From UHGV virus genome UHGV-0109493: a stretch of 30,683 nt of DNA. One strand, written 5' to 3'. This document shows, piece by piece, positions 11,303 through 11,958 of this stretch. The notes under the pieces were generated by a model that was given only the letters and a program-made list of their open reading frames with translations, searched no databases and was not told the origin of the DNA. This stretch comes from a virus. The stretch's first letter is position 1. Each line of letters opens with the position of its first letter. A program made the translations under genes and the position numbers.

Positions 11303-11439
11303 TAGAAATGATGAGCCGAGACTTTAGTTACGGGACGCAGAGAGAATACCGTAGAAAAACTTATCTAACTTAAGTAGAATTGCTGCGGGTGCTTGAGGCT
11401 ATCTGCCTCAGGCATGAACACCAAAAGGCAGATAGAGAA

Positions 11440-11520
11440 AAGCCCCAGTTAACATTATGCGTCCGGCAAGACGCTTAACATTAATCTGAGGCCACATCTA
11501 TGCTTTGCATACGTAGATTA
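11440..11520 (-). ncRNA. sok: Candidate Sok-like antisense RNA (position inferred, boundaries not resolved)
   Basis: In known hok/sok loci the antisense RNA is encoded opposite the mok translation-initiation region. I could not define its promoter or ends from sequence alone. Confidence 0.25.
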
Positions 11521-11706
11521 GCCTCTTACCGACCAAAAGGTCAAGGAGAAGCAGGCTATGAAGCAGCAAAAGGCGATGTTAATCGCCCTGATCGTCATCT
11601 GTTTAACCGTCGTTGTGACGGCACTGGTAACGAGGAAAGACCTCTGCGAGGTACGAATCCGAACCGGCCAGACGGAGGTCGCTGTCTTCACAGCTTACGA
11701 ACCTGA
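11500..11706 (+). CDS. mok: Mok-like overlapping reading frame
   Basis: 68-aa ORF starting upstream of hok and overlapping it in another frame, the arrangement known for mok in hok/sok loci. Confidence 0.45.
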   Translation: MLCIRRLASYRPKGQGEAGYEAAKGDVNRPDRHLFNRRCDGTGNEERPLRGTNPNRPDGGRCLHSLRT

Positions 11707-11713
11707 GGAGTAA
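11558..11713 (+). CDS. hok: Hok/Gef-family type I toxin
   Basis: Hand-translated 51-aa ORF MKQQKAMLIALIVICLTVVVTALVTRKDLCEVRIRTGQTEVAVFTAYEPEE with an N-terminal transmembrane helix, matching recalled HokD/RelF-type toxins. AAGGAG precedes the ATG. Confidence 0.85.
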   Translation: MKQQKAMLIALIVICLTVVVTALVTRKDLCEVRIRTGQTEVAVFTAYEPEE

Positions 11714-11781
11714 GAGACCCGGCGGGGGAGAAATCCCCCGCCACCTCTGATGTGTCAGGCATCCTCAACGCACCCGTACTT

Positions 11782-11802
11782 ACCCGCTTCGGCGGGTTTT
11801 TT
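11782..11802 (+). terminator. Rho-independent terminator of the hok transcript
   Basis: acccgc ttcg gcgggt followed by tttttt, about 70 nt after the hok stop. A second GC hairpin ggcggggga gaaa tcccccgcc lies at 11721-11742. Confidence 0.7.
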
Positions 11803-11958
11803 GTTGTGGTGGATAAATTAGCTTTTTGTGTACTCTTTTAGCCGTAAGTCTTGAGGGACTGACTGTTGTAAATAGAATCGTGTTTGCTTAGTTAGCGCGC
11901 AGGGAGAAGAGGGATGGACCCTTCAGGGGAACGCTATTAATCTGGAAAATTTCTATTT

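Follow-up and report, generated by a model that had tools for sequence, protein, structure and literature searches.

The locus analysed here spans positions 11352-11802 of a 30,683-nucleotide (nt) stretch of viral DNA, UHGV virus genome UHGV-0109493 (the window, by which the whole stretch is meant), and centres on a 51-amino-acid (aa) open reading frame (ORF) that is surrounded by RNA elements of the hok/sok type. A reading of the letters alone, the original prediction, had proposed a hok/sok-like type I toxin-antitoxin locus at this place, and the proposal was supported by a Hok-family toxin, a mok frame, a leader, pairing between the ends of the messenger RNA (mRNA), an antisense promoter-like site and a terminator at the homologous positions, and public hokD, mok and hok annotation. 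The best explanation of the region is an autonomous type I toxin-antitoxin cassette in which hok, mok and sok are all complete; it would belong to the hokD/hokW lineage and is carried by a Rac-like lambdoid prophage. This reading is given a probability of about 0.88. The cassette itself is already known, being a standard hok/mok/sok arrangement that is annotated in identical public records and has a close, experimentally characterised relative. The positions of its features are collected in Table 1.

The 51-aa ORF is, judged by its sequence, a Hok/Gef-family toxin gene. The membrane toxin of the original prediction was confirmed by a protein search, in which HOK_GEF (Pfam PF01848) matched with E=1.2e-23 and 82.9 bits (cut-off 22) and the match spanned profile positions 1-42 of 42. 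Among the PHROGs, the protein matches phrog_251 (E=6.9e-33), which is labelled 'MokW-like host killing' and placed in the category moron. Residues 6-25 form a hydrophobic stretch, a cysteine stands at position 30, and a single residue separates the protein from HokD of Escherichia coli K-12 (V19 in the window, I19 in K-12). RefSeq protein WP_001406927.1 (HokD) is encoded on DNA identical to the cassette, and overexpressed HokD has been found to be toxic (bioRxiv 10.1101/2025.08.07.668861). The K-12 hokD mRNA is edited by TadA at a TACG tyrosine codon, which is thereby recoded to a cysteine codon (PMC5630033), and the Tyr-Glu (Y-E) codon pair is considered to be kept across the Hok family because of TadA editing (bioRxiv 10.1101/2025.08.07.668861). 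The corresponding motif in the window lies at the codon of Tyr47, and GCTTACGAA is unchanged between the window locus and R1-type hok.

Table 1. Features of the predicted hok/mok/sok cassette, with their positions in the window
Feature	Position	Strand	Basis
Promoter-like site of hok: -35 TAGAAA (11352-11357), 17-nt spacer, -10 TAGAAT (11375-11380)	11352-11380	+	9/12 consensus matches
Predicted full-length hok mRNA, about 416 nt	11387-11802	+	R1-type alignment, Rfam start, terminator
tac element at the mRNA 5' end, GGGUGCUUGAGG, predicted to pair with fbi	11387-11398	+	Fold, relatives
5' leader hairpin, arms 11399-11408 and 11426-11435	11399-11435	+	Fold; contains the ctatctgcc/ggcagatag repeat
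Predicted Sok antisense RNA, about 75 nt	11434-11508	-	Start 7 nt after the -10, as in R1
Long leader hairpin (body and terminator hairpin of Sok on the other strand)	11442-11492	+	Rfam alignment, fold
Stem-loop with the mok start ATG (11500-11502) and loop 11503-11511	11496-11518	+	Fold
mok-like overlapping frame, 68 codons, out of frame with hok	11500-11706	+	ORF, MN652886.1 annotation
Promoter-like site of Sok: -35 TTGACC (11544..11539), 18-nt spacer, -10 TAATCT (11520..11515)	11515-11544	-	Read from the sequence
Small hairpin GACC-AAAA-GGTC (11531-11542), then hok Shine-Dalgarno AGGAG (11544-11548)	11531-11548	+	Fold
hok toxin gene, 51 aa, MKQQKAMLIALIVICLTVVVTALVTRKDLCEVRIRTGQTEVAVFTAYEPEE	11558-11713	+	Pfam, PHROG, identical RefSeq DNA
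TACG motif at the Tyr47 codon, putative TadA A-to-I site recoding Tyr to Cys	11696-11699	+	Identity with K-12 hokD
G+C-rich hairpin after the hok stop, arms 11721-11729 and 11734-11742	11721-11742	+	Fold
fbi element, CCUCAACGCACCC, one bulged C (11769), complementary to tac	11763-11775	+	Fold, relatives
Intrinsic terminator of the hok transcript: stem 11782-11797, T run to 11802	11782-11802	+	Terminator call

Plasmid R1 was represented in these comparisons by an R1-type locus, which was retrieved by tblastn with the R1 Hok protein; R1 hok/sok DNA was not matched by blastn against plasmids. The first nucleotide of the predicted hok mRNA, G11387, aligns with the 5' end of the R1-type hok mRNA, GGCGCUUGAGGCU, from which the 5' end is assigned by homology; it lies 7 nt beyond the end of the hok -10 element. 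This -10 element is kept in relatives, whereas homology breaks off at about 11363-11375, so that the hok -35 element varies between contexts. Rfam model RF01794 matches 11387-11563 with 111.1 bits against a gathering threshold of 59 (E=1e-24, model positions 1-157 of 157), and this is the sole Rfam match at the gathering threshold in the whole window. RF01794 is named 'sok antitoxin', and the model runs from the 5' end of the hok mRNA to the hok AUG; therefore, a match locates the leader of hok but does not show on which strand Sok is encoded. Plus-strand coding of Sok, as suggested by the strand of the match, was rejected, since the model also matches the sense strand of the R1-type locus (L005, 232-403) and of Min27 hokW (L086, 2508-2682).

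Folding of the predicted hok mRNA gave a minimum free energy (MFE) of -173.8 kcal/mol (z=-8.2 against dinucleotide shuffles). The original prediction had named the long-range pairing of hok mRNA as a check, and a 12-base-pair (bp) helix between tac and fbi, unnoticed at the time, is present in the MFE structure. Across 67 distinct relatives, tac is invariant and the tac/fbi helix is 100% paired, the changes in fbi being either G-U-compatible or confined to the bulge. The U11390-A11772 pair of the window is C-G in R1-type loci, and G11398-C11763 becomes A-U in Kluyvera-type cassettes; these compensatory changes support the helix, and the R1-type mRNA folds with the same pairing of its 5' and 3' ends. 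The hok start region is engaged in a second long-range helix, of 14 bp, with 11681-11696, which is 99.8% paired in the relatives.

Other structures of the mRNA also have counterparts in relatives. The inverted repeat noted earlier in the leader (ctatctgcc at 11399-11407 and ggcagatag at 11427-11435) lies within the 5' leader hairpin, where one A-U pair is replaced by a compensated G-C pair in 4 relatives, and the long leader hairpin that follows has 3 pairs with compensatory changes in 5 relatives. The small hairpin before the hok Shine-Dalgarno sequence, which overlaps the Sok -35 of the opposite strand, has the counterparts TGCC-GAAA-GGCA in relatives and GCGC-UUU-GCGC in R1, indicating that the structure is kept while the sequence changes. 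Downstream of the hok stop codon (11711-11713), the predicted G+C-rich hairpin was found directly after the stop, with variation between G-U, A-U and G-C at one pair and one double change among relatives, and an equivalent exists in R1. The terminator was likewise found where it had been predicted and is present in most relatives; it is replaced in Min27 hokW, where homology ends at 11776. A rival reading, in which an intergenic region contains the ORF and hairpins by chance, has nothing but the small size of the ORF in its favour, and is refuted by the Pfam and Rfam E-values, the z-score of the fold, and conserved homologues that number in the thousands.

The tip of the long leader hairpin varies in length. 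Relative to the Rfam consensus, the window has a 16-nt apical insertion at 11459-11474, which forms the hairpin tip GCGUCC-GGCA-AGACGC and is shared by 62 of the 67 distinct relatives, and 5 relatives (L036 type) lack 21 nt at the tip and show compensatory changes in the remaining stem. A scan for sigma-70 promoters over 6000-15000 found 3 promoter-like sites, against 11.6 +/- 3 in shuffled sequences, all of them adjoining the hok cassette: the hok promoter, a plus-strand site inside the leader at 11475-11504, and a site upstream of rem at 11851-11878.

A cis-encoded Sok RNA with its own minus-strand promoter is predicted by analogy with the characterised loci, and would be transcribed across the leader. 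The original prediction had proposed a search for a sok promoter on the minus strand around 11440-11520; a promoter-like site does exist on that strand, but at 11515-11544, and the interval first proposed is mostly the body of the predicted RNA, whose predicted start is near 11508. The promoter-like site aligns with the R1 sequence TTGCGC-17-TATCCT and with the hokW-type sequence TTGCCT-17-TAACCT, the latter being the type in which mutation of the -10 abolished antitoxin activity (PMC8621323). The 5' tail of the predicted RNA is complementary to the mok start and its loop; a long hairpin comes next, and the RNA would end in a U-rich stretch near 11434. It folds with -32.5 kcal/mol (z=-5.7). 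The 5' end of R1 Sok is known via primers (PMC1635323), and sokW of Sp5 is reported to have 71 nt of complementarity (PMC8621323).

Several results weigh against the reading as a complete cassette. For the toxin, an NCBIfam Hok subfamily model matches with E=7.5e-13, and the NCBIfam Hok models score below their curated cut-offs. For the mRNA, removal of the 3' 42 nt (11761-11802) is predicted to let the 5' end (tac) refold and pair with 11405-11415 of the leader hairpin, but the MFE structure of the truncated mRNA has a frequency of 0.0004 in its ensemble, which it therefore represents too poorly for the fold to tell whether refolding opens the mok start. A similar refolding was reportedly described for R1 by Franch, Gultyaev and Gerdes in 1997. 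For Sok, a generic promoter scan returned no minus-strand site at threshold, and the predicted promoter matches the consensus at 8 of 12 positions with an 18-nt spacer. The validated sokW promoter type scores even lower, at 7 of 12, and the result of the scan is therefore discounted as evidence against sok; the promoter call rests on positional homology and not on the consensus score.

The result of the scan would also fit a Hok gene that has no working cis-antisense antitoxin and is controlled by mRNA folding, by the upstream frame, or by Sok supplied in trans from another copy. Of 5426 complete E. coli genomes, 4725 (87%) carry cassettes at least 80% identical to that of the window, the median being 2 copies and the maximum 10, and the body hairpin of Sok hardly differs from one cassette to another; both observations would favour such an arrangement. 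It is nevertheless very improbable: the -35 and -10 occupy precisely the positions of the validated promoters of R1 and sokW and are closer to the consensus than those of sokW, the predicted Sok folds stably, and the region of its recognition 5' tail differs between cassettes, which argues against supply in trans.

The complete-cassette reading also accounts for the mok-like frame, which had been predicted as a longer frame overlapping hok and was found as a 68-aa ORF. Its ATG lies 58 nt from the hok ATG, its Shine-Dalgarno sequence GAGG is at 11488-11491, and the frame matches phrog_37205; the Shine-Dalgarno sequences and start codons of both mok and hok align with those of R1. The upstream ATG is kept in 78 of 78 relatives, whereas its frame relative to hok varies. 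The varying frame suggests that translation through the region is all that counts and that the Mok peptide itself would be irrelevant. The source of the variation lies in the loop that follows the mok start codon (11503-11511), a loop complementary to the 5'-terminal nucleotides of the predicted Sok. Mean column entropy in the 67 distinct relatives is 0.91 in the loop, compared with 0.026 in the hok coding sequence (CDS) and 0.0 in tac. The loop exists as 17 alleles in those 67 sequences. A set of about 200 loci, 88-100% identical elsewhere, contains 23 alleles, and the allele of the window, CTTTGCATA, is rare.

Insertions and deletions in the loop alter the distance between the upstream ATG and the hok ATG. 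At 57 nt (65 of 78 loci), the two are in frame and specify a 70-aa N-terminally extended Hok, the MokW of the databases; at 56 nt (10 of 78), a 19-codon ORF ends in a TGA that overlaps the hok ATG; and at 58 nt (3 of 78), the result is the out-of-frame 68-aa mok of the window. Among Kluyvera-type cassettes and some Escherichia ones, the 58-nt form is frequent. This is also the canonical mok-to-hok distance of R1, and a plasmid locus of R1 type whose Hok protein is identical has 57 nt. A recent survey left Mok unanalysed, calling its prediction 'not trivial' (bioRxiv 10.1101/2025.08.07.668861), and a limited literature search found no paper on the shifting upstream frame.

One possible explanation, held tentatively and on balance unlikely, is that the loop is a specificity determinant under diversifying selection that keeps co-resident hok/sok cassettes on different prophages orthogonal, shifts of frame between coupling modes being a by-product. 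In 6 genomes with 2 or 3 cassettes each, 10 of 10 co-resident pairs differ in loop allele; the comparison is underpowered, as identity is expected at a rate of only ~0.12, and the difference is therefore not significant. A YUNR U-turn motif common to the loop alleles was considered and dropped after a check by eye, since the motif is not universal. Two tandem hok cassettes about 560 bp apart (matches at 808-853 and 1371-1415) are present on CABIZV010000002.1 (L224, Enterobacteriaceae MGYG-HGUT-00110), and these differ in loop allele and slightly in Hok protein. At this locus, more work may be repaid only by the hypervariability of the Sok-recognition loop and by the shifts of the mok frame, and a population-scale study of antisense orthogonality among co-resident type I systems could be worthwhile.

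Identical copies of the cassette are present in public records. All 431 bases are identical in 7 listed complete E. coli records (6 chromosomes and 1 of unstated type), in which the PGAP gene is hokD, and in strain 357900 the identical cassette lies inside a Rac-like prophage, together with EplBA and an LT-type enterotoxin. In MN652886.1 ('Escherichia phage Rac', E. coli 442/2), mok and hok are annotated on DNA that is 100% identical over 11380-11810, and the neighbours are the same as in the window: an orphan ORF, mok/hok, rem, DUF1367, YbcO and Q. The RefSeq chromosome NZ_CP038859.1, which encodes WP_001406927.1 as hokD, likewise has cassette DNA identical to that of the window, and sok is unannotated in both records. 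Phage Rac-SA53 (KU052037.1) also has mok and hok annotated. The late region of the window prophage is a different mosaic from those of phage Rac and the RefSeq hokD records. Related cassettes occur in 110 phage records, in 728 plasmid records (some of about 95 kb), and in a P1 phage record, so that P1-like phage-plasmids are among the carriers. As a finding, one more copy of so widespread and already annotated a cassette has little significance.

Four short contigs with E. coli-type hok cassettes carry unexpected labels: a Collinsella metagenome-assembled genome (MAG), Xanthomonas pisi, a 'Candidatus Scatousia' MAG and a Haemophilus MAG (L215, L216, L221 and L226, respectively). These labels most likely reflect contamination or mis-binning and not true hosts.

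The R1 hok/mok/sok locus (parB) shares the layout of the window cassette from end to end. Common to both are the 5' sequence GGnGCUUGAGGCU, a leader hairpin, the mok start GAGGC-N8-AUG, UAGCCUCUUACC, a small hairpin followed by AAGGAGAAG-N-AUG for hok, GCUUACGAA at the tyrosine codon, an out-of-frame mok at 58 nt, a hairpin after the stop, and pairing of the 5' and 3' ends. Although the family domain is common to both Hok proteins, they are well diverged. Compared with R1, the window has a Sok hairpin longer by 16-17 nt, and its tac/fbi helix has 12 bp with a bulge instead of 7+2 bp. The R1 locus is plasmid-borne, and post-segregational killing has been demonstrated for it.

The closest characterised relative is hokW-sokW (mokW) of the Stx2 prophages Sp5, 933W and Min27, which is about 92% identical in nucleotides over 11370-11776 and has the same leader, Sok hairpin, tac and fbi. 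It has been proven to be a type I toxin-antitoxin pair, including its Sok promoter (PMC8621323). The differences lie in mokW, which shares the reading frame of hokW (57 nt, 70 aa), mok of the window being out of frame (58 nt, 68 aa); in the HokW C-terminus, VDYESEK, which is unlike that of the window protein; in the loop after the mok start; and in the terminator hairpin after fbi, which is absent from hokW and present in the window.

K-12 hokD (relF, of the Qin prophage) is nearly identical in DNA from the hok Shine-Dalgarno sequence through the terminator into rem. Upstream of this, it lacks tac, the leader, the mok start, the Sok target, and most of sok, which are replaced by relBE, and it gives no RF01794 leader match. 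The K-12 locus (L004, NC_000913.3 1645119-1645872) is homologous to 11544-11960 of the window only, and therefore the window carries the complete form of the hokD locus and shows what the K-12 hokD/relF locus would have looked like in its ancestor, before truncation. A few relatives on viral contigs have the same 11544 breakpoint as K-12 hokD.

The truncation of K-12 hokD raises the possibility that the cassette of the window, although intact, is a silent hitch-hiking relic like the chromosomal hok loci of K-12, with at most weak transcription, a toxin that is never released, and no effect on prophage or host. According to a recent survey (bioRxiv 10.1101/2025.08.07.668861), chromosomal hok loci, even with intact elements, were reported to give no post-segregational killing (Pedersen and Gerdes 1999), and those tested earlier were not activated by rifampicin. 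This counts against an active cassette, and the window allele is rare, with 19 of 5147 matching records at least 99% identical. A silent relic is improbable, however, because the ORF and all regulatory elements are intact, and because the 67 distinct relatives show hardly any variation in the hok CDS, tac and fbi while flanks and loops vary, a pattern that indicates purifying selection and weakens the relic reading. The 92%-identical hokW-sokW is, moreover, active (PMC8621323).

An active cassette would be expected to work by the mechanism of plasmid R1 hok/sok and hokW-sokW; the transcription of hok and sok, the processing, the toxicity of Hok and the trigger are all carried over from these loci by homology. 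A weak constitutive promoter would yield the stable ~416-nt mRNA, which would be inert as long as tac pairs with fbi and long-range helices enclose the start region of hok. Slow trimming of the 3' end would remove fbi, so that the 5' end could refold and make the mok start and the Sok target accessible. While the cassette is transcribed, the short-lived Sok (~75 nt) would pair with the mok initiation region, block translation of mok and hence the coupled translation of hok, and trigger cleavage by RNase III. Once the supply of Sok ends, Hok would be made and would enter the inner membrane, and the membrane potential would collapse. The supply could be cut off by the transcription shut-off of an infecting phage, by loss of the element, or by events of prophage induction, and editing by TadA of Tyr47 to Cys probably raises toxicity.

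The addiction and abortive-infection roles put forward in the original prediction are plausible, but hokW-sokW instead helps phage release after induction: during RecA-dependent prophage induction, sokW RNA vanishes and HokW is made, and deletion of hokW-sokW halves phage release (PMC8621323). By analogy, the leading candidate for the window cassette, at somewhat under even odds, is a role in speeding lysis and release at prophage induction. hokW lies near the end of the Stx phage genome, in another context, position and orientation than the window cassette, and its role may therefore not transfer. Abortive infection or exclusion of other phages is possible though doubtful, stabilisation of the prophage is unlikely, and there is a small chance that the cassette has no physiological role. 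For annotation, the value of the result is that a host-killing module beside rem and upstream of Q may affect lysis timing, phage exclusion or prophage retention.

The cassette sits between an orphan ORF and rem, upstream of Q (13172-13714), in the early-right (nin-like) region of the prophage, and points in the same direction as the upstream replication genes and the downstream DUF1367, YbcO and Q. The upstream ORF (11039-11302) had no Pfam or PHROG match. The AT-rich flanks of the original prediction are reflected in G+C contents of 34-44% in the orphan ORF and rem, compared with 47-58% in the cassette. In 77 related loci, homology to the window starts at 11363-11375 and the flanks differ; the right end falls at about 11800-11810 in about half of these loci, most of the others continue into rem, and a few copies start at 11544, like K-12. 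A query joining the orphan ORF directly to rem found no empty site in complete E. coli genomes: all 12 records that covered at least 80% of this chimeric query matched in two pieces, the listed top one with hokD between, so insertion is not directly demonstrable. Sharp recurrent boundaries with differing flanks, together with a promoter and terminator of its own, support the view that the cassette would be a moron-like mobile module, in agreement with its proposed arrival as a moron. Its own promoter and terminator, discrete boundaries, variable context and deviating G+C content are all features expected of a moron.

The rest of the prophage shows a mosaic composition. No complete E. coli genome covers at least 80% of 5700-30683 in one place, the best reaching 72% at 89% identity. 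The prophage is thus a mosaic, its early region being Rac-like and its late region lambda-like, and is not represented as such among these genomes. A strong terminator at 13798-13817, just after Q, looks like a Q-antiterminated tR'. Between Q and the holin, an ORF at 13791-14687 encodes an AraC-family regulator (HTH_18/HTH_AraC), and in related Rac-like prophages this slot holds the EplBA toxin genes.

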